Source: a virus
DNA length: 40,649 nt
Direction: 5' to 3' (one strand)
IMG/VR virus record: IMGVR_UViG_3300020138_000004
Span: 1-40,649 of that record
A program made the position numbers and the translations under genes. Each line of letters starts with the position of its first letter. Position 1 is the first letter of the stretch. The notes below the pieces were generated by a model that was not told the origin of the DNA, did no database searches, and saw only the letters and a list, made by a program, of their open reading frames with translations. Shown here in pieces: positions 3,902 through 40,649 of this stretch.

Positions 3902-3987
3902 TGGAATATGTTTTGGTTTTTCTTTTAGGTATGTGTGCCACTCGTTTAATTCAACTTATTTCAGAAAGCGAAAGAAATGACCGCTAA
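3901..3987 (+). CDS. Small hydrophobic protein (28 aa)
   Basis: Hand translation MEYVLVFLLGMCATRLIQLISESERNDR. It fills the gap between two genes with overlapping junctions. Weak call. Confidence 0.25.
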   Translation: MEYVLVFLLGMCATRLIQLISESERNDR

Positions 3988-4447
3988 GACAGAGATGCCG
4001 GAATTGAAACCATGCCCTTTTTGTGGAAGTGATGGCCTTATATATCACAGCAGAGACGGTGAGGTTGCATTTGTTCGCTGTGTGAAGTGGCTTGAAGGAT
4101 GCATGGGCGCAAGCGTTACTTCAACTGAAGATGTTGATGCGATAAAGCAGTGGAACGCCCGTGCCACATCCCCCGATTTGGAGGGGCCGGATGCGGTATA
4201 TGTGGATCATGACAGCATGTCTTACATTGACAGCAATGACCCGCACCTTGAAACGATTTTGGGAATAGGAAAATTTGTCAAATACACCCGCGCCGAATGC
4301 CCCGCGCCCGATTTGGAGCGCAACGTATTGCTAGATATTATTGAACGTGCGGCACACGCACAGAAATGGGGTTCTGTTATAGATCACGTTAAAAAACTTC
4401 GTGAACTCCTCTGCGCACAGGACAGTCAGCGCGGAAAGGAGGAGTGA
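3977..4447 (+). CDS. Lar-like restriction-alleviation protein with a C-terminal extension
   Basis: The N-terminus ELKPCPFCGSDG...FVRCV..C......DVDAIKQWNARA matches the Lar family pattern (KPCPFCG ... C..C ... A...WN.R). About 90 further residues have no recognised motif. Confidence 0.65.
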   Translation: MTAKTEMPELKPCPFCGSDGLIYHSRDGEVAFVRCVKWLEGCMGASVTSTEDVDAIKQWNARATSPDLEGPDAVYVDHDSMSYIDSNDPHLETILGIGKFVKYTRAECPAPDLERNVLLDIIERAAHAQKWGSVIDHVKKLRELLCAQDSQRGKEE

Positions 4448-4701
4448 TGCTTGATCCTAACAATCTGCCCTGCCGAATCATGACATCCGAAGTTTTGGAA
4501 CTGGCGCGCTTCGGATCATCAAAGCTGAGGCAAAAACAGAAACTGGGGGAATTTCCAAATCCCATAGATCGCGGCAAACAAAGCATTTATGACCGGGATC
4601 AGGTTTTGGCCGCTTTGGGATTGATCGAACCCGTGGAAGGAAGTGCACACCATGATCCTTTCAGGAAAGGACTTGAGAGACTTGGCAAAGCTGGAAAATG
4701 A
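4444..4701 (+). CDS. xis: AlpA/excisionase-type helix-turn-helix protein (putative Xis)
   Basis: MTSEVLELARFGSSKLRQKQKLGEFPNPIDRGKQSIYDRDQVLAAL fits the AlpA/Xis HTH pattern (..FP.P......W....V..W). It lies immediately upstream of, and overlaps, the integrase gene. Confidence 0.6.
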   Translation: MMLDPNNLPCRIMTSEVLELARFGSSKLRQKQKLGEFPNPIDRGKQSIYDRDQVLAALGLIEPVEGSAHHDPFRKGLERLGKAGK

Positions 4702-5803
4702 TTTGCCGGCATATTGCGAGGTGCGCCAGCGTAAAGGCTATGCGGTGGTGTATTTCGTCGTGCGCAAGCATATCCGGCCCAAGGGGTGGAAACCAACTTA
4801 TGAAATCGGCCGGACAGACCGCCTAAGCAATGGCGAGATAATCAAAAGAGGCAGGGAATTGTATGAAGCGCTGAAAGAGGCGCGCAAGTCGGAATTGTGC
4901 GACTCCCCTTCCCGCGTTCCAAAAGGATCACTGGCATGGCTAATTGAGCGGTACAAGGAATCCGAGCACTATACAAACCTGAAACCGGCAACACAAAAAG
5001 GCTATCTGCATTATCTGGACACGATAAAAGAATGGTCGGCACTCTCTGGGCATCCCCATGTGCGCTTATTGACGCCGCCGACGATTTGGAAGTTTTTGAA
5101 CCGCTGGAAGGACACGCCGCGCACGAGAAAGCACTATAAGGCGAATCTTTCCAAGCTGTATCAGGTAGCGATCGAGCAGGGCTGCGTGTCTTCAAACCCC
5201 ATGCGGGAAATCAAGCTTCCGAAAGCCAAGAGCAAAAAGCAGCCGTTTAAGGTGTGGAAGCTGAAAGATATTGAATCCTTCGCAAATAAAGCTGATGAAT
5301 TAGGCCTGTCCAACGTCGGAACGGCCGTAATCGTTGCATGGGAAGCATTCAGGCAAACCGATGTTTTTGATCTGCAAGAGCCGAGGGACTATAAAAACGG
5401 CTCATTCCGTTTCTTCACGTCAAAGACAGACCAGCTCATCACGATCAAGGCGTCCGCGCGCACGGTAGAGAGGCTTTCTAATCGACCGTCCGGCCAGCTT
5501 CTTTTGACCGTGAACGACCTGACAAAGATGAAGTGGACGAAGGATTCCTTCTACAACCAATATAAGAAGGTGCTGGAGCAATGCGGATTGAAGGGGCATG
5601 TTTTCCGCCGGATCAGGAATTCATCAGCTATCCATGCTCTCAAAGCTGACCTGACGGATGCCGAGTTCCAGCAGCGTTACGGATGGACGAAAAGCGACGT
5701 AAGGGCGATGCGCGATCTATACACTGATATAGACCAGGAGATCATCGACAAGGGGGCGGAGAAGATCGCCCGCTTGGAAAAAGTTCAACGGATCAAAAAA
5801 TGA
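4643..5803 (+). CDS. int: Tyrosine integrase
   Basis: The C-terminal catalytic region GHVFRRIRNSSAIHAL...GWTKSDVRAMRDLYTD supplies the HxxR box and the terminal Tyr. It is adjacent to a tRNA-derived attP. The start is uncertain (4643 or 4652). Confidence 0.9.
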   Translation: MHTMILSGKDLRDLAKLENDLPAYCEVRQRKGYAVVYFVVRKHIRPKGWKPTYEIGRTDRLSNGEIIKRGRELYEALKEARKSELCDSPSRVPKGSLAWLIERYKESEHYTNLKPATQKGYLHYLDTIKEWSALSGHPHVRLLTPPTIWKFLNRWKDTPRTRKHYKANLSKLYQVAIEQGCVSSNPMREIKLPKAKSKKQPFKVWKLKDIESFANKADELGLSNVGTAVIVAWEAFRQTDVFDLQEPRDYKNGSFRFFTSKTDQLITIKASARTVERLSNRPSGQLLLTVNDLTKMKWTKDSFYNQYKKVLEQCGLKGHVFRRIRNSSAIHALKADLTDAEFQQRYGWTKSDVRAMRDLYTDIDQEIIDKGAEKIARLEKVQRIKK

Positions 5804-29167: not shown

Positions 29168-29354
29168 CGTCGCTTCCTTCCTTGATTACGCCAGCCCACC
29201 CGCAGTGGTGGCAATTGAACAAAATTTCATCGTGTTTCACCGTGACCGAAAGGCATGGATCGCGCTTGTTCCTCCGGCCTTGTGAGCATTTCGGGCAGGG
29301 CTGTTTCCTGCGCTTCGGATCAATGCCCATGTTTCTTGCCTTGTCGGAAATCAT
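29046..29354 (-). CDS. Primase-type zinc-ribbon ORF (102 aa) overlapping the primase-helicase start in another frame
   Basis: MISDKARNMGIDPKRRKQPCPKCSQGRRNKRDPCLSVTV...FNCHHCGWAGVIKEG is a CxxC...CxxC ribbon. The ATG is ATGA-coupled to the upstream gene. The last ~40 codons overlap 27767..29167 out of frame. Confidence 0.55.
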   Translation of the reverse strand: MISDKARNMGIDPKRRKQPCPKCSQGRRNKRDPCLSVTVKHDEILFNCHHCGWAGVIKEGSDDAGKMAGKQGIGTRAGYWDGRNRTPEKRGNLGKDSVRSFW

Positions 29355-30274
29355 AGCCAGTGAACCCCCGTTGATTGGGGCTTGGATTCCTGCACTTCGT
29401 CCTGCCAACGCCCCTCGCTCAACCACGTCGATGGATGAGGTACGAACTGCCAGTCTTCCGTGCCTTTTTTCTTAAGCCAGAGGAGATTCATGGCCCGCCA
29501 ATTTGGAAGGATTTCTTCCAACGCTGCTCGGCTCCTCGCCTTGAGAAATGCTTTTTTTGCCGCGTCCTTGCCGACCTTCTTCGCCGCTATCGGCCAGAAG
29601 TCGTTTTCAAATTCGATCAATCGCGGAGATAAACCTTTAGGTTTATCTTTTTCTGTATCTGTTTCTGTATCTGTTTCTGTATCTGTGATTGCTTGAGCCT
29701 TGCTAGGGCTTGCTAGGGGTGGGACATAGCCTTTTCTGTACGACATTCCCGCCTGATCTATTGAAAATTCACGCTTTTTTGCGTTACAGGCCCGACACGC
29801 GGTGACCAAGTTATCTAGGCTATTATCCCCTCCCTTAATCTCTGGGATGATGTGGTCTAGCGTGAGATTTTTTTCACTAGTGCAATACACGCAAGCATAA
29901 GCATCCCTTGCTAGGACTTGCTTGCGTGTATTCTGATTAACCCATCTCCGCCGAGGCAATCCAAGGCTCTCCCTTTTTTCGCGGTGCCGCTCCTGCTGGT
30001 TGTAAGTGGCTGTGTATTGCCGCTTATCCCAGTTCATTAAGCGTCCATTCTCATCGCAAAAACCCTTGTTATGAAACAGGCGAAACGTTTCTTCTAACGC
30101 TTCATTGTCGATACGCAGGGCAAAAGCGATCTCATCTCTGGTCAGCTTCTCCAATTCGCCGCCGCTATGAAGGCAAAATAACATCACCAATCGGCGTTGC
30201 ATGGCCTCCGGCATGGTCTGCACCTTCGGATCGGTTGCGAATTCGCTGTATAGCCTGAACCATTGATTAGCCAT
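29351..30274 (-). CDS. Replication-organiser-like protein with an embedded HNH domain and a (TDTE)3 repeat
   Basis: The N-terminus WFRLYSEFATDPKVQTM and the C-terminus FWPIAAKKVGKDAAKKAF...PHPSTWLSEGRWQDE resemble phage replication initiation/organiser proteins. The central CVYCTS...LTLDHIIPEIKGGDNSLDNLVTACRACNAKK is an HNH motif. Confidence 0.65.
   Translation of the reverse strand: MANQWFRLYSEFATDPKVQTMPEAMQRRLVMLFCLHSGGELEKLTRDEIAFALRIDNEALEETFRLFHNKGFCDENGRLMNWDKRQYTATYNQQERHREKRESLGLPRRRWVNQNTRKQVLARDAYACVYCTSEKNLTLDHIIPEIKGGDNSLDNLVTACRACNAKKREFSIDQAGMSYRKGYVPPLASPSKAQAITDTETDTETDTEKDKPKGLSPRLIEFENDFWPIAAKKVGKDAAKKAFLKARSRAALEEILPNWRAMNLLWLKKKGTEDWQFVPHPSTWLSEGRWQDEVQESKPQSTGVHWL
29651..29686. 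repeat. Three perfect tandem copies of the 12-mer TTCTGTATCTGT
   Basis: Read directly from the sequence. It encodes TDTETDTETDTE on the minus strand, inside 29351..30274. Confidence 0.95.
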
Positions 30275-33989: not shown

Positions 33990-34187
33990 TTATTGGGTGG
34001 TTGAAAAGAAACCGTTGTAAGTGACCTTTTCGGCACCAAATTCACGCAAGTAGGCTTCAAACAGCTTGCGCGAACCTTGCTTCTTTCCGTTCTCGACTTC
34101 GGAAAGGTAGCCCTTTGCAAAACCAAGGCGCTTGGACATTTCTTCCAAGGTCAACCCTTCCGCATTCCTAATTTCGATAGGTCTCAT
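33990..34187 (-). CDS. cro: Cro-like XRE-family HTH protein (65 aa; alternative start 34238)
   Basis: MRPIEIRNAEGLTLEEMSKRLGFAKGYLSEVENGKKQGS is a typical HTH_XRE. The gene is divergent from the CI-like gene. There is no clear SD before ATG 34187. Confidence 0.7.
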   Translation of the reverse strand: MRPIEIRNAEGLTLEEMSKRLGFAKGYLSEVENGKKQGSRKLFEAYLREFGAEKVTYNGFFSTTQ

Positions 34188-34280
34188 GTGGCGTAGGTTC
34201 TCATAATGAAAACCTAAAGGCAAGAGAAAAGTTCTCATTTTTTCCCTTTGTAATTTTTCGAGGGGGGCTAGGAGTCGGAT
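34188..34280. promoter_or_regulatory. CI/Cro divergent control region with inverted repeats
   Basis: TAGGTT-N11-AACCTA at 34194..34216. GAGAA-AAG-TTCTC at 34224..34236. GTTCTCAT occurs twice (34198 and 34231). Promoter hexamers were not confidently placed. Confidence 0.5.
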
Positions 34281-34952
34281 ATGCAAAACAACATCAGGTT
34301 TCACCGCAAAAAGGCGGGCCTAAGTCAGACCCAACTTGCGGGTGCGGCTGGCACGGTGAAAAGCAAGATTTCCACCCTCGAAAGCGGAAAGCAGGAGCTA
34401 ACGCTGACATGGATGGAAAAGATATGCGATGCCCTTGCCAGTCACGGTTACAAAATTGAGCCTGCGGATTTGTTGCCGAATTCAGAAATAAAGAAGCTCG
34501 GCTATATCAACGTCATAGGCGAGGTGCAGGCTGGTATATGGAGCGAAGCCTCCCAATGGGATGAGGCCGACTGGCAGGTGGCTCTGTTCGACGTAAGCGA
34601 AGCTGAGAAGCTGGCTTACGGGCTTCGCGTTAAAGGCGATTCCATGGATGAGTTCTACCCCGAAGGCTCTATTGTCGTCGTCATGGACATCCATGATTAT
34701 CCTATTCCGATCGACACTTTCGACCATGTGATCGTTCAGCGTTGCCGGGGCGGGGATATTTGCGAAACTACAATCAAGGAACTGGTTATTAAGGGGGACA
34801 AGGCCGAGTTATGGCCGCGGTCAAGAAACCCGAAATATAAAGACCCGATATGCCTGTTTTGGCCGTACGATAAGCGCCAGCAGCATGGGATTGAATCTGT
34901 CGAAATTAAAGGGGTGGTAATAGGCTCAATCAATAGAAGGAAGAGATTTTAA
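34281..34952 (+). CDS. cI: CI-type repressor: XRE HTH plus S24 (LexA-like) autopeptidase
   Basis: HTH: IRFHRKKAGLSQTQLAGAAGTVKSKISTLESGKQ. Candidate Ala-Gly cleavage site in GEVQAGIW. Ser motif in VKGDSMDEFYPEGSIVVV and Lys in TTIKELV. SD AGGAG lies upstream. Confidence 0.9.
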   Translation: MQNNIRFHRKKAGLSQTQLAGAAGTVKSKISTLESGKQELTLTWMEKICDALASHGYKIEPADLLPNSEIKKLGYINVIGEVQAGIWSEASQWDEADWQVALFDVSEAEKLAYGLRVKGDSMDEFYPEGSIVVVMDIHDYPIPIDTFDHVIVQRCRGGDICETTIKELVIKGDKAELWPRSRNPKYKDPICLFWPYDKRQQHGIESVEIKGVVIGSINRRKRF

Positions 34953-36532: not shown

Positions 36533-36742
36533 TTAGAATTTTTTGTCTATTCCCGCATCTTTCAGAACACCGTTTGCCGTATGGCGGGATTTAACGCCTT
36601 TATCAACAATCAAGTTCTTTTTTACGATTGGGCTATACCAAATCTCATGATCCCCCCTGCCCTGTCGGACAAAAGTGCATCTATGTTCTTGAAGGGTTTT
36701 AATTAATTCTCGATAGAATCCTTTAGACACACGCCGCCCCAT
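36533..36742 (-). CDS. hicA: HicA-family toxin
   Basis: 69 aa. LIKTLQEHRCTFVRQGRGDHEIWYSP...SRHTANGVLKDAGI fits the HicA/YcfA pattern (L...G....RQ.GSH......P.H....gt...Ilk.ag). Confidence 0.75.
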   Translation of the reverse strand: MGRRVSKGFYRELIKTLQEHRCTFVRQGRGDHEIWYSPIVKKNLIVDKGVKSRHTANGVLKDAGIDKKF

Positions 36743-36995
36743 ACGGCACTACAAAAGAGCGCGGATCAAAGAGGAAGTTGTCACGGCTGATGTCTTCTTT
36801 GACGCCGTTCAATTCCAGCAATTCAGGCGCGACCTCCATAACTCGCTTCACGAGAGCCGACATCGTTGGGGCTTCGGTATTAAGGCCATAAATGTCATCG
36901 CTATGGGCTACAAACACCTCTGCTTCGCCGTCCCATTCAACAAAGACAGTATAGGTTTTTGGCTGGGCTAAAACGCGTTTTATCATGCTTAACAT
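36723..36995 (-). CDS. hicB: HicB-like (DUF1902-type) antitoxin
   Basis: YTVFVEWDGEAEVFVAHSDDIYGLNTEAPTMSALVKRVMEVAPELLE fits the HicB N-terminal fold pattern. It overlaps hicA by 20 nt. The start was chosen at the ATG 7 nt after AGGA (alternatives 37001 and 36986). Confidence 0.65.
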   Translation of the reverse strand: MLSMIKRVLAQPKTYTVFVEWDGEAEVFVAHSDDIYGLNTEAPTMSALVKRVMEVAPELLELNGVKEDISRDNFLFDPRSFVVPYGAACV

Positions 36996-37048
36996 TCTCA
37001 TATCCTGCCTAACAAGAGGTTAACAGAATCCGCCCGTCACGGGCAAAT

Positions 37049-37449: not shown

Positions 37450-37782
37450 ATGTCACAGACACAGAAACACACGACTCTATACGCGCATCGCCAATTTGTA
37501 ACCGACAAGCAATCATTCTTTATCGACGAAAACGGAACTCGTTACGGCGAAACCCCGAACTTGGTAATTGACGCAGGTGATGAAAACCTAGCCGCCCTGA
37601 TCGCCGCCGCGCCGGAACTGCTTGAGGCTTTGGAACGGGCAGATATACGCCTTGAAAGCATTTCTGACTATTTAGAAATGCACTGTAGCGGCGAAAACGC
37701 CATGGCAAAAAGGCAAATTCTTTATTCGATCCGCGAACAAATCACAGCCGCAATCGCCAAAGCCACAGGCGGTGCGCAATGA
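37450..37782 (+). CDS. Hypothetical early protein (110 aa)
   Basis: It is the first ORF after the early promoter, with SD AAAGGAA upstream. No family recognised. Confidence 0.6.
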   Translation: MSQTQKHTTLYAHRQFVTDKQSFFIDENGTRYGETPNLVIDAGDENLAALIAAAPELLEALERADIRLESISDYLEMHCSGENAMAKRQILYSIREQITAAIAKATGGAQ

Positions 37783-38108
37783 ACATCCCTTTCTCCTACG
37801 AAGAACCAAGCAGCTATTTCGATCATTACCTGATCGCAAAAACGAGCGATGGGCTTGAAATAAAAATCGGCTTTAAGGGTTTTGAGGCTGAATACATCTA
37901 CATATCCGAACATGAGATGGAGGTTGCCAGCGATGATTATAAGGGCCTCTACGTCAATTTCGGCCATGGGCTGGAAATGAAGATCATCCCTATCGCCAGC
38001 GTGATCCAGCAGGCCAATGCTCAAATTGATTTCATCGTTGCCGAAGTCGAAGCCGAGCAGCGCGACTGGGATCGGCATGTCGCCTCTTTTTCTCAAGCAC
38101 AATTATAG
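37779..38108 (+). CDS. Hypothetical early protein (109 aa)
   Basis: ATGA-coupled ORF. No motif recognised. Confidence 0.55.
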   Translation: MNIPFSYEEPSSYFDHYLIAKTSDGLEIKIGFKGFEAEYIYISEHEMEVASDDYKGLYVNFGHGLEMKIIPIASVIQQANAQIDFIVAEVEAEQRDWDRHVASFSQAQL

Positions 38109-38117
38109 GAAACCGAA

Positions 38118-39173
38118 ATGATCACCAAGCTAACAAAACAACAAGAAGCAAAATTTCCCCTTTATGTCCGGAAATGGATTGATATTGGCCTTTGCACAAA
38201 ACCTGCTGATCGTGAGAAAGCAGAAAAAGCCATCAAAGGTATGTATGGATTGGCGAAGCTACGGGAGCCTGTTGTTATATGGCTTCCCTGCCCCCTAAGC
38301 GCGGCCATGAGCGCATGTGCTTTCTCTTATTACATGAAGACACGGCACAATAAAAGTTCTGCGGTGGGTTCTGCGGTGGGTTCTGCGGTGGGTTCTGCGG
38401 TGAATTCTGCGGTGCGTTCTGCGGTGGATTCTGCGGTGCGTTCTGCGGTGCGTTCTGCGGTGAATTCTGCGGTGGGTTCTGCGGTGGGTTCTGCGGTGGG
38501 TTCTGCGGTGGGTTCTGCGGGATACTCTTATTTTGGGGGCTCCTTATGGGCTGGCTGGGGTGTTTGGGGATCATATTATGGCCCTGCTGCACTTGATTAC
38601 TATTCCGAGGTTCTTGGTGTTTCGATTGACCTAAACCTCAATGAAATAACTAAAAGTTGCGGCTATTATTGGACGCTTGATGGCGTTTGTTTTGCCAGTG
38701 AACGACCGAATCTAATTAAGTTGGATGAACAAGGACGCCTCCATAGCGAAACTGGGCTTGCGATTTCCTATCCATCAGGATGGGGCCTGTATTACTGGCA
38801 TGGGACACGTATCCCGCCAGAATGGCTTTCTGAAAAAGAAAAACTTACTCCACAGGTCGCATTGACGTGGGAAAATGTCGAGCAGCGCCGCTGTGCATGT
38901 GAAATTCTAGGCTGGGGTAATGTCCTCGAACACCCTTCCTTAAATCCAAAAATCATCGACAAAGACGAACCGCATATCGGTTCACTGATTGAGGTTGATT
39001 TACCAGATGCTCCCAAACAACGATTTATCAAATTCCAATGTGGGACTGGTAGATGGTTTGCAGAACCCGTTAACGACCCAAAGTACAATACCGCACTCAA
39101 AGCTAACGCTGGCGGGAATGGCTGGCGTGGCCTTGGTGACCCTGAGAGTTTTATTCCATTCATTCGTAGCTAA
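38118..39173 (+). CDS. Repeat-containing protein (351 aa), resembles the uncharacterised DUF6745-type family (from memory)
   Basis: The N-terminus is W.DIGLCTKPADREKAEKAIKGMYGLAKLREPVVIWLPCPLSA. The centre is (SAVx)13. The C-terminus is YYWTLDGVCFASERP...DEQGRLHSETGLAISYPSGWGLYYWHGTRIP...ENVEQRRCACEILGW. Confidence 0.7.
   Translation: MITKLTKQQEAKFPLYVRKWIDIGLCTKPADREKAEKAIKGMYGLAKLREPVVIWLPCPLSAAMSACAFSYYMKTRHNKSSAVGSAVGSAVGSAVNSAVRSAVDSAVRSAVRSAVNSAVGSAVGSAVGSAVGSAGYSYFGGSLWAGWGVWGSYYGPAALDYYSEVLGVSIDLNLNEITKSCGYYWTLDGVCFASERPNLIKLDEQGRLHSETGLAISYPSGWGLYYWHGTRIPPEWLSEKEKLTPQVALTWENVEQRRCACEILGWGNVLEHPSLNPKIIDKDEPHIGSLIEVDLPDAPKQRFIKFQCGTGRWFAEPVNDPKYNTALKANAGGNGWRGLGDPESFIPFIRS
38358..38520. 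repeat. Thirteen tandem 12-bp units TCTGCGGTGNNT plus a partial unit
   Basis: Units start every 12 nt from 38358 to 38502. Only positions 10-11 vary (GG, AA, CG, GA), giving the order G G G N R D R R N G G G G. Confidence 0.95.
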
Positions 39174-39189
39174 AAAAGGAGAAAATACG

Positions 39190-39603
39190 ATGATTCACTT
39201 GACCGAAGACATGTTCAAATCTGGAAAGCCTGTCGCACAGGGAGAAGTCCTGATCTGGATGAAAAAATACGCACCGGAATCCGTAACAAAGGCTATTGCG
39301 GGACTAAAAAGCATGACCGCAATGAAGCTGGAAAATGGCCAGCTTATTCTGGGCCATTCAGAGACTGGACACCACCACGTTCTTGAGTCTGTTCGTCCTA
39401 GCGTTTCCATCAGCAAGGTTGCACAAGCCCTTATTGATCAGACCAACGATACGTTTGTGGAACTTAAGCTTTACGAAGACTGCAAGCTGGTACATCAACG
39501 TGGCCACGACACCCACGCAGGATTTGTTCTTCCTGCCGGTGAATATATCCGCGGTATACGTGAAGAGCAATCACCCGAAGGGTGGAGACGGGTTCAGGAC
39601 TAA
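39190..39603 (+). CDS. His-cluster small protein (137 aa), unknown function
   Basis: Track ORF 38989..39603 trimmed to ATG 39190, which follows SD AAAGGAGAAAATACG. It contains GHSETGHHHVL and HQRGHDTHAG and looks beta-rich. Confidence 0.6.
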   Translation: MIHLTEDMFKSGKPVAQGEVLIWMKKYAPESVTKAIAGLKSMTAMKLENGQLILGHSETGHHHVLESVRPSVSISKVAQALIDQTNDTFVELKLYEDCKLVHQRGHDTHAGFVLPAGEYIRGIREEQSPEGWRRVQD

Positions 39604-40262: not shown

Positions 40263-40552
40263 TGGAGCAAGCTATCGGAAAGCCCAGTTGCAATGTGTGC
40301 GGCCAAGTCATGGCAGACAGATACTACCGTGCCTGCGAAACCTGCCGCGAAAAATGGCGCAAGGCCAAAAGCCGAACGCCGTTGCAAGCCAGAAACGCAG
40401 CGCAGGAAATCATCGAAGCCCTCCTGACCGCCCTTCCCTATGTGGAGGACGTACTTGATAACCCCGAACAGCTTAAATGCTTCAAGGCCGGGGCGGTGCA
40501 GCAGGACGTGAAGAAAATCAAAACAGCATTAGAGAAAGCAGGTGCGATATGA
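40262..40552 (+). CDS. Zinc-ribbon-like small protein (96 aa)
   Basis: Track ORF trimmed to ATG 40262, which shares a base with the upstream stop. It contains CNVCGQ...CETCREKW. Its stop overlaps the ATG of the DnaJ-type finger ORF. Confidence 0.5.
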   Translation: MEQAIGKPSCNVCGQVMADRYYRACETCREKWRKAKSRTPLQARNAAQEIIEALLTALPYVEDVLDNPEQLKCFKAGAVQQDVKKIKTALEKAGAI

Positions 40553-40649
40553 GCGGATTTGAGAGTTGCCATTATTGTGGCGGGTCAGGGACGCTGCATT
40601 CAATCAATGGGACAGGATCATGCAGTTGCTCCGTCTGTGGCGGAAGCGG
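40523..40649. repeat. Terminal direct repeat, copy B (identical to 1..127)
   Basis: Same comparison as copy A. It contains the 5' part (from ATG 40549) of the small zinc-finger ORF that is complete at 27..143. Confidence 0.95.

Follow-up and report, generated by a model that had tools for sequence, protein, structure and literature searches.

We analysed the whole of the viral record IMGVR_UViG_3300020138_000004 (positions 1 to 40,649, hereafter the window), which, judged from its gene content, is a novel temperate phage with a lambdoid layout. A gene on its + strand encodes a DUF6745-family protein in which an array of 12-bp units, each coding for four residues, is inserted between two conserved domains, and this gene is followed by a second one for a small histidine-cluster protein, which we refer to as the partner. 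Across the family the array occupies one fixed site, and an evolutionary mechanism of in-frame length change, homogenisation of the units and selection on the last residue of each unit (x) is well supported by the sequence comparisons. Our preferred reading overall, to which we give about an even chance, is that the repeat gene and its partner are a tunable accessory module for counter-defence or host interaction, a function that we infer solely from an analogy with gp54 of mycobacteriophage Tweety and from the position of the two genes in their operon. The features on which this account is built are as follows.

38118..39173, + strand: DUF6745-family gene, 351 amino acids (aa), consisting of N-domain, tetrapeptide array and C-domain (open reading frame (ORF) list, Pfam, homologs)
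38118..38342, + strand: N-terminal conserved domain (aa 1-75), with the VIWLPCPLSA motif and a helix at its end (alignments, AlphaFold)
38356..38520, + strand: expandable insertion, the 13.8 x 12 bp array (Tandem Repeats Finder (TRF), per-position variation, second assembly, predicted local distance difference test (pLDDT) <50)
38521..39173, + strand: C-terminal globular region with the motifs SERP, GRLH, WHG and N.EQRR (Pfam, alignments, AlphaFold, BFVD)
38853..39170, + strand: C-terminal tail, aa 246-351, co-inherited with the partner gene (identity comparison across loci)
39190..39603, + strand: partner gene, 137 aa, all-beta, with the motifs HSETGHxH and HxRxxDTH (conserved adjacency, homologs, AlphaFold)

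The C-terminal region matched the Pfam family DUF6745 (PF20530) with 70.9 bits (gathering cut-off 27, E=1.2e-19) over aa 173-297 (nt 38634-39008), which bore out an initial annotation of this DNA that had described the flanks as DUF6745-like. The Pfam model spans the C-domain only; the N-domain, the array and the partner lie outside it. Core motifs of DUF6745 members (ERP, GRLH, WHG, N.E.RR) are present in the window protein, and all close homologs shared a single layout, namely an N-domain ending in VIWLPCP.SA, then the array, then GGS.W and the DUF6745 core (SERP, GRLH, WHG, N.EQRR). Among 102 sequences, P59 of the N-domain and H209 of the C-domain were invariant, and conservation of at least 90% was observed for L5 and Y43 in the former and for P197, G229, N253, E255, R257 and R258 in the latter; W20, G24 and P51 of the N-domain were conserved at this level in the 52 closest sequences. 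AlphaFold modelled the N-domain at pLDDT 86-97 and the C-terminal region at 87-97, with most residues above 90 (predicted template modelling score 0.72). The window protein is a true member of the family, and its predicted fold matched the DUF6745 protein of Microcystis phage LMM01 in BFVD (E=1.7e-15, probability 1.00). Matches in the viral structure library searched with Foldseek were other DUF6745 proteins only, and no significant fold relative of the repeat protein was found in the PDB (Foldseek, best E=0.7); sequence-profile searches of the PDB were empty for the repeat protein and for its partner. The flanks of the repeat gene matched no characterised family in Pfam, PHROG, PADLOC, NCBIfam or the PDB, so that on this point, too, the initial annotation stood. 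Weak PHROG matches to tape-measure proteins were rejected, as they covered the repeat region and reflected composition only.

The family proved to be very large. A sequence search returned 320 homologs at E<=1e-3 among the scored candidates, and the C-domain alone matched 5,470 cluster representatives among 1.84 billion proteins. A search for related loci recovered 226 in viral contigs and 6 in bacterial genomes, the latter from Sphingomonas, Rhodospirillales, Acidobacteria, Steroidobacteraceae and Terriglobales; locus searches with a single sequence gave no useful match. Two of 50,697 cultured or deposited phage records carried a DUF6745 gene, one of them the Mycobacterium abscessus prophage prophiGD102-1, whose gp38 combines DUF6745 with approximately 50 (G/D)QLx units. 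DUF6745 was not mentioned in the literature searched.

TRF reported one array at 38356-38520 (period 12, 13.8 copies, 92% matches, score 274), by a wide margin the strongest tandem repeat of the window. Thirteen complete units (TCTGCGGTGNNT) run from 38358 to 38513 and are followed by the remainder TCTGCGG up to 38520. The array is in frame within the 351-aa ORF and codes for (SAVx)13 followed by SAG, with x in the order G G G N R D R R N G G G G along the thirteen units. The complete units differed from one another only in the first two bases of codon 4 (unit positions 10 and 11), and in unit number, order and place of variation the sequence and TRF agreed with what had been annotated initially. 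Two-unit patterns occurred six times in the window, always in the array, and not once in 100 shuffles. The nearly mirror-symmetric order of the units, which had also been pointed out, was not significant. It was reached by 2.6% of free permutations and by 27% of those in which G units were fixed at both ends, and the order is uninformative because of this latter figure. As a structural clue to a helical hairpin the mirror order was rejected, since the G units at both ends account for it and it is absent from a second assembly of the genome. AlphaFold gave the array tract pLDDT values below 50; of the 4-residue-periodic helical repeats attributed to the family, the periodicity was found, and the helical character was not established.

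Positions 1-127 and 40523-40649 of the window are identical, which makes it a circular contig with overlapping ends; its non-redundant length is 40,522 bp. An independent MEGAHIT contig of the same genome (European Nucleotide Archive ERZ27245341 k141_40388, 40,727 bp) agreed with the window without a single mismatch in the 3,579 nt left and the 2,136 nt right of the array (approximately 5.7 kb). This contig stops inside the array at both of its ends. Its N-side end reads GGGNRDRNRDDRRRR..., with x in the order G G G N R D R N R D D R R R R plus a partial unit, and its C-side end reads ...RGDRRRDRRNGGGG, with the order R G D R R R D R R N G G G G. Because the two array ends cannot be overlapped, the allele of k141_40388 has at least 30 units. 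Subtracting the 205 array bases that separate the two versions gives exactly 40,522 bp, so both versions of the genome are equal in non-redundant length apart from the array. The thirteen units of the window correspond to the first 7 N-side and the last 6 C-side units of k141_40388, joined via a common 46-nt 'RDR' stretch. The window array is thus either a true short allele, formed by deletion between repeated sub-motifs, or an assembly collapse, and its unit number of 13 and its unit order are not reliable. The initial annotation had itself raised an assembly collapse together with a unit number invariant among relatives as grounds for doubt; the window array is possibly collapsed, and the unit number was not invariant among relatives. 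Contigs stopping inside arrays were also observed at L094, L096 and several IMG/VR loci.

Homologs of the window protein carried from 0 to more than 60 tetrapeptide units, all at one site between the N-domain and the DUF6745 C-domain; the domain search and comparison of relatives that had been proposed at the outset gave, in this way, a DUF6745 match and a unit number that varied. Members ranged from those with no array through short perfect and long perfect arrays to degenerate ones, and the site remained constant throughout. Unit types differed by lineage and included SAVx, SATx, AATx/DATx, SQVx, SQLx, DQVx/AQVx, DSVx/ASVx, DNLx, QQVx and (G/D)QLx, as well as DQLx. In 37 non-redundant arrays (881 units), the numbers of extra alleles at unit positions 1 to 12 were 4, 16, 6, 3, 2, 0, 6, 7, 11, 73, 37 and 13, or 110 at positions 10-11 versus 17 at positions 3, 6 and 9; the arrays were detected by protein-level periodicity, which may hide non-synonymous variation in codons 1-3 and does not hide synonymous variation. 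At unit position 2 some arrays alternated between Asp and Ala. The synonymous positions 3, 6 and 9 were nearly invariant inside each array and different among arrays, with codon series such as TCT GCG GTG, TCG GCG GTG, TCC GCC GTG, TCG GCC GTC and AGC GCC GTG. To produce this per-position pattern, the units must be homogenised (concerted evolution) and the diversity of x kept or regenerated. The recent expansion proposed initially does not by itself account for variation limited to codon 4, for which homogenisation with selection on x is needed.

The residues found at x were restricted. In arrays of the NNC type x was Asp (27%), Arg (20%), Gly (18%), Tyr (14%) or His (7%), these five making up 85% of units, and in arrays of the NNG type it was Trp (27%), Gly (27%), Arg (25%) or Glu (14%), together 94% of units. 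Lys, Gln and Cys were absent, and Thr, Pro and Ile were not among the x codons although they are mutationally adjacent. The pattern points to protein-level selection on residue x, because different codon series reach the same classes (acidic, Arg, Gly, aromatic).

Array length changed among otherwise near-identical genes, as the initial annotation had expected of an in-frame tract. Pairs of proteins with 100% identical N and C flanks had 14 versus 7, 11 versus 24 and 15 versus 6 units (a 2-3 fold difference), L002 and L006 differed by a clean 3-unit indel, and the two assemblies of the window genome disagreed in the array only. This evidence for length change is consistent in direction, although some of the differences may be assembly artefacts, and it agrees with length differences reported for cultured mycobacteriophages (PMC2884959). 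The unit was 12 bp in all arrays examined, and the family accordingly lacks the unit length, not a multiple of three, that marks a frameshifting phase-variable locus. A frameshift was seen in one phage represented in two Joint Genome Institute samples (L092 819-2476 and L093 782-2476). L093 has a single 564-aa gene with a degenerate DATx array, and L092 has a 37-nt deletion in the array with a frameshift that leaves ORFs of 294 and 211 aa; the deletion is either a real inactivation or an assembly error. Further 4-residue-periodic ORFs (NATx, xQVx) were observed within a few kb of the DUF6745 gene at L077 (6214-9888), L078 (7557-11232), L068 (10840-12092), L066 and L070/L071/L074, and these may be paralogous repeat genes in tandem.

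The partner ORF starts 16 nt past the stop of the repeat gene and is preceded by an AAGGAG ribosome-binding site at 39176-39181; the repeat gene itself has AGGA at 38107-38110, 7 nt ahead of its ATG. In 55 of 63 loci the DUF6745 gene was directly followed, on its own strand, by a partner homolog, the median distance being 4 nt; the homolog was present at 31 of the 37 loci with an array and at 24 of the 26 without one. The early-operon position ahead of a His-cluster ORF noted in the initial annotation stood; the host-takeover or counter-defence role suggested there is backed only by this position and by the analogy with Tweety gp54. Partner homologs numbered 380 at E<=1e-3, and since the best 120 of the 380 are 66-87% identical, the partner is far more conserved than the repeat protein. 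No match to the partner was found in Pfam, PHROG, PADLOC or NCBIfam. AlphaFold gave it a confident all-beta fold (pLDDT 90), for which the PDB held no significant fold match (best E=0.3). Conservation of the motifs HSETGHxH and HxRxxDTH suggests a metal site, and the partner is probably a metal-binding protein.

The end of the repeat protein follows the partner. Every locus at which partner identity reached 64% had a tail identity of at least 75%, with N-domain and C-core identities of 3 to 56%. The last approximately 105 residues of the repeat protein are therefore inherited as a block with the partner, and the gene is a mosaic. This mosaic pattern (window 38853-39603) was seen at L093, L007, L022, L009, L017, L011 and L003, where the N-domain, array type and C-core are unrelated, and the converse pattern was seen at L004. 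In prophiGD102-1 a different small Cys/His-rich protein (gene 39, L087 5380-5724) lies 2 nt after the DUF6745 repeat gene, in place of the HSETGHxH partner. In the deposited phage genome MW202476.1 a partner homolog without annotation (L088 4480-5019) was found downstream of a DUF6745 gene with SSLx repeats.

The repeat gene and its partner belong to a lambda-PL-like delayed-early leftward operon, in which they have the immunity region on one side and the recombination genes on the other. This is the position at which early accessory genes and anti-defence genes are found in lambdoid phages. Along the + strand come first a CI-like repressor (34281-34952) and small ORFs, then the ORFs 37450-37782 and 37779-38108, the repeat gene and its partner, followed by more small ORFs, Erf, a YqaJ-type exonuclease, an HNH gene, the single-stranded DNA-binding protein (SSB), Lar (3977-4447) and the integrase (4643-5803). 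A Cro-like helix-turn-helix gene (33990-34304) starts the divergent strand, on which the replication and then the structural genes follow. Megablast found no nucleotide match in cultured phages or Escherichia coli genomes, and the closest relative of the capsid, in a Rhizobium phage, was 32% identical. Other features of the region are these.

37450-37782 and 37779-38108, + strand: two small upstream ORFs of the same operon, tightly packed (PHROG 1273; Pfam Phage_P22_Y8K6 recorded on the source contig)
36533-37001, - strand: HicA toxin (PF07927, E=1.3e-6) and DUF1902/HicB-like antitoxin (E=3e-15), an antisense cassette (Pfam)
3977-4447, + strand: Lar restriction-alleviation protein (PF14354, E=6e-10), just ahead of the integrase (Pfam)

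The two small upstream ORFs overlap by 4 nt, and the second stops 9 nt ahead of the start of the repeat gene. The HicA/HicB-like cassette is located between the repressor and the early leftward genes, and the Lar anti-restriction gene belongs to the same leftward operon as the repeat gene. Elsewhere in the window, the replication-initiator/DnaD-like gene (29351-30274, - strand) contains an HNH endonuclease segment at aa approximately 90-180 amid replication-protein matches, which points to a fusion or to the insertion of a homing-type nuclease. A second, 12/6-bp tandem repeat at 29644-29686 (TATCTGTTTCTG x3.6, score 79) falls within the 3' portion of this ORF and could be a set of iterons or an origin.

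The design of the window protein has a counterpart in Tweety gp54, in which 48 copies of a 12-bp tetrapeptide repeat (AAxx) stand between unique termini, with 26 copies in Che8 gp57 and 15 in PMC gp51 (PMC2884959). As in the window family, where third positions are near-invariant and variation falls at the first and second positions of a specific codon, the third codon positions of gp54 are invariant and variation is found at the first and second positions of specific codons; gp54 is non-essential and is encoded in the early region of its temperate phage, and the authors of that study foresaw that repeats of this type might be common among phages (PMC2884959). Both proteins place a 12-bp tetrapeptide array between unique N- and C-terminal regions, and unit number differs among near-identical DUF6745 genes as well, with the caveat on assembly given above. 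According to PMC9262239, which cites Dedrick et al. 2017, Tweety mutants escaping Phrann gp29/gp30, a putative (p)ppGpp synthetase system, have more or fewer gene 54 repeats, and this change in repeat number is taken to suggest that the juxtaposition of domains tunes counter-defence. The two proteins also differ. The gp54 unit AAxx has two variable residues and the S-A-V-x unit of the window has one, only approximately 45 aa follow the gp54 array, and no His-cluster partner is annotated downstream of it. Homology to the gp54 flanks was rejected, as gp54 is without DUF6745 or any other Pfam domain, hhalign gave the N-domain a probability of 0.1%, and the repeat alone aligned. Tweety gp54 is, on these comparisons, an architectural and evolutionary analogue and not a relative. 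A toxicity screen of cluster F1 did not mention the repeat gene.

Other repeat systems resemble the window gene in part. Variable region 2 of bbp36 in Bordetella phage BPP-1/BMP-1, which has been cited as a parallel to gp54, is likewise an in-frame tandem repeat in a non-essential phage gene, with 9-20 copies depending on the isolate, and differs from the window in its 24-bp element (19-bp repeat plus 5-bp spacer); we set it beside the window by its published description (PMC2884959). Bacterial simple-sequence-repeat contingency loci such as those of Haemophilus (PMC2651432) share with the window slippage-prone coding repeats that give fast, reversible and heritable variation, whereas the window unit, a multiple of three, would change length and surface rather than act as an on/off frameshift, L092 being a possible exception. 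The window units, like those of transcription activator-like (TAL) effectors, are near-identical in DNA with variation at a specific codon, which fits concerted evolution with selection on specificity residues. TAL repeats are helical units of 34 aa that follow a proven one-repeat-one-base DNA code and carry their hypervariable residues in near-identical DNA repeats; the window unit, in contrast, has 4 aa.

The comparisons above show an array that gains and loses whole units in frame, as expected of slipped-strand mispairing or unequal recombination. Approximately 10 of the 12 nucleotides of the unit are kept uniform, which indicates concerted evolution, and the first two bases of codon 4 stay diverse within a restricted set of residues (Gly, Arg, Asp/Glu, Tyr/Trp and His, with Asn in addition in the window phage). 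Under the reading that we prefer, the number of units would determine how far apart the two conserved domains lie and in what geometry, and residue x would form a variable surface. Simple repeat changes could then adapt the repeat protein to new targets; re-tuning of this kind was demonstrated by experiment for Tweety gp54, which is non-homologous. The repeat protein and its partner would in this way act as a mutationally tunable module in infection, most likely in counter-defence or in the binding of variable host factors, with the partner as a probable metal-binding effector or cofactor working with the conserved C-terminal tail.

Several observations weigh against this account. Approximately two thirds of the top C-domain representatives are without a clear array, having none or a decayed 4-periodic tract, and approximately one third have a clear one, so that the array is dispensable for the core function. 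Many of the arrays come from short-read metagenome assemblies, which often break or may collapse at them, and some of the differences in number and order between arrays could be artefacts. The repeat tract is without a confident structure in the AlphaFold model. Homology provided no evidence of activity for either protein in PADLOC, Pfam beyond the DUF, NCBIfam or solved structures, and function is transferred from Tweety gp54 by analogy only, across flanks that are non-homologous. The assignment to an operon rests on gene packing, because a scan for promoters and terminators gave chance-level results and was uninformative.

The repeat gene and its partner may instead be a defence or superinfection-exclusion system of the prophage, with the repeat protein as a fast-evolving sensor of components of invading phages and the partner as a metal-dependent effector. 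The element is temperate, its homologs in bacterial genomes are probably prophages, and the nearby HicAB cassette indicates that lysogeny-type morons occur in the region; a tight two-gene unit with a probable metal-binding partner would suit such a role, as would diversifying variation of the kind typical of sensors. Neither protein, however, matched PADLOC-DB 2.0 at E<=0.01, and the pair lies within a dense early operon upstream of Erf, the exonuclease, SSB and Lar, not beside the repressor or the attachment site. Family members were also found on viral contigs of 100-156 kb, and such phages may be lytic. Counter-defence is the sole functional precedent for the repeat design (PMC9262239). We consider a defence role unlikely. 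Somewhat less probable again is that the array is a neutral, slippage-prone linker, a tolerated low-complexity insertion whose hypervariability is partly an artefact of assembly. Neutral drift would strike synonymous sites no less often than codon 4, in conflict with the excess of alleles at positions 10-11 over positions 3, 6 and 9, and x converges on the same residue classes via different codon series, avoiding Lys, Gln, Cys, Thr, Pro and Ile. Arrays also recur at the same site in very divergent lineages with different units, and in gp54 repeat number has a phenotype (PMC9262239). A neutral linker would nevertheless agree with the many family members without an array and the decay of some arrays, with the low-confidence structure of the tract, with the frameshifting 37-nt deletion in the L092 array, with the frequent breaks of assemblies at arrays and with the window array being derivable as the collapse of a longer one.

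The limitation of variation to two nucleotides per 12-nt unit, alongside uniform synonymous sites, would also be expected if the x codon were written by a dedicated site-specific mutagenic mechanism, either like that of diversity-generating retroelements (DGRs) or new. DGR targets share with the window gene a localised codon hypervariability in a phage accessory gene, and the fixed part of the window unit, TCTGCGGTG, is without adenine and the variable codon of the unit has the form NNT, much as mutagenesis of an AAT template codon would leave it. No reverse transcriptase was matched among the 20 larger window ORFs screened against PHROGs, and a search of the whole window for a template copy of the two-unit pattern, allowing up to 3 mismatches, gave matches inside the array only. 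The window alone is compatible with adenine mutagenesis, but many family arrays keep invariant adenines at fixed positions (AGC, CAG, GAC, AAC), so that for the family adenine-specific mutagenesis is ruled out, and the restricted and chemically convergent set of residues indicates selection. We exclude DGR-type adenine mutagenesis on these three grounds, the missing template copy, the screened ORFs and the fixed adenines, and regard a dedicated mutagenic mechanism of any kind as very improbable. Less remote, though improbable, is a more far-reaching idea, in which the DUF6745 protein and its partner would be a widespread programmable phage system. The array would then serve modular recognition, each unit contributing one specificity residue from a limited alphabet (Asp/Glu, Arg, Gly, Tyr/Trp, His), read along a linear or repetitive target loosely in the manner of TAL repeats, or else a new kind of site-specific mutagenesis would generate the diversity of the x codon.

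The repeat design was already known; new relative to the literature searched are the protein family and its size, the constant place of insertion, a hypervariability confined to one residue per unit, and the conserved partner. Assembly from short reads often breaks, and possibly collapses, repeat genes of this type, which leaves their diversity under-counted. Tweety gp54 has so far been the sole phage tetrapeptide-repeat protein with a known role, within one mycobacteriophage protein family. The same design is now found in an unrelated and very large family, represented in phages or prophages of Proteobacteria, Acidobacteria and Actinobacteria. If the analogy holds true, repeat-tuned proteins would be a general route to rapid phage adaptation, and DUF6745 with its partner would be a concrete candidate for experiments.

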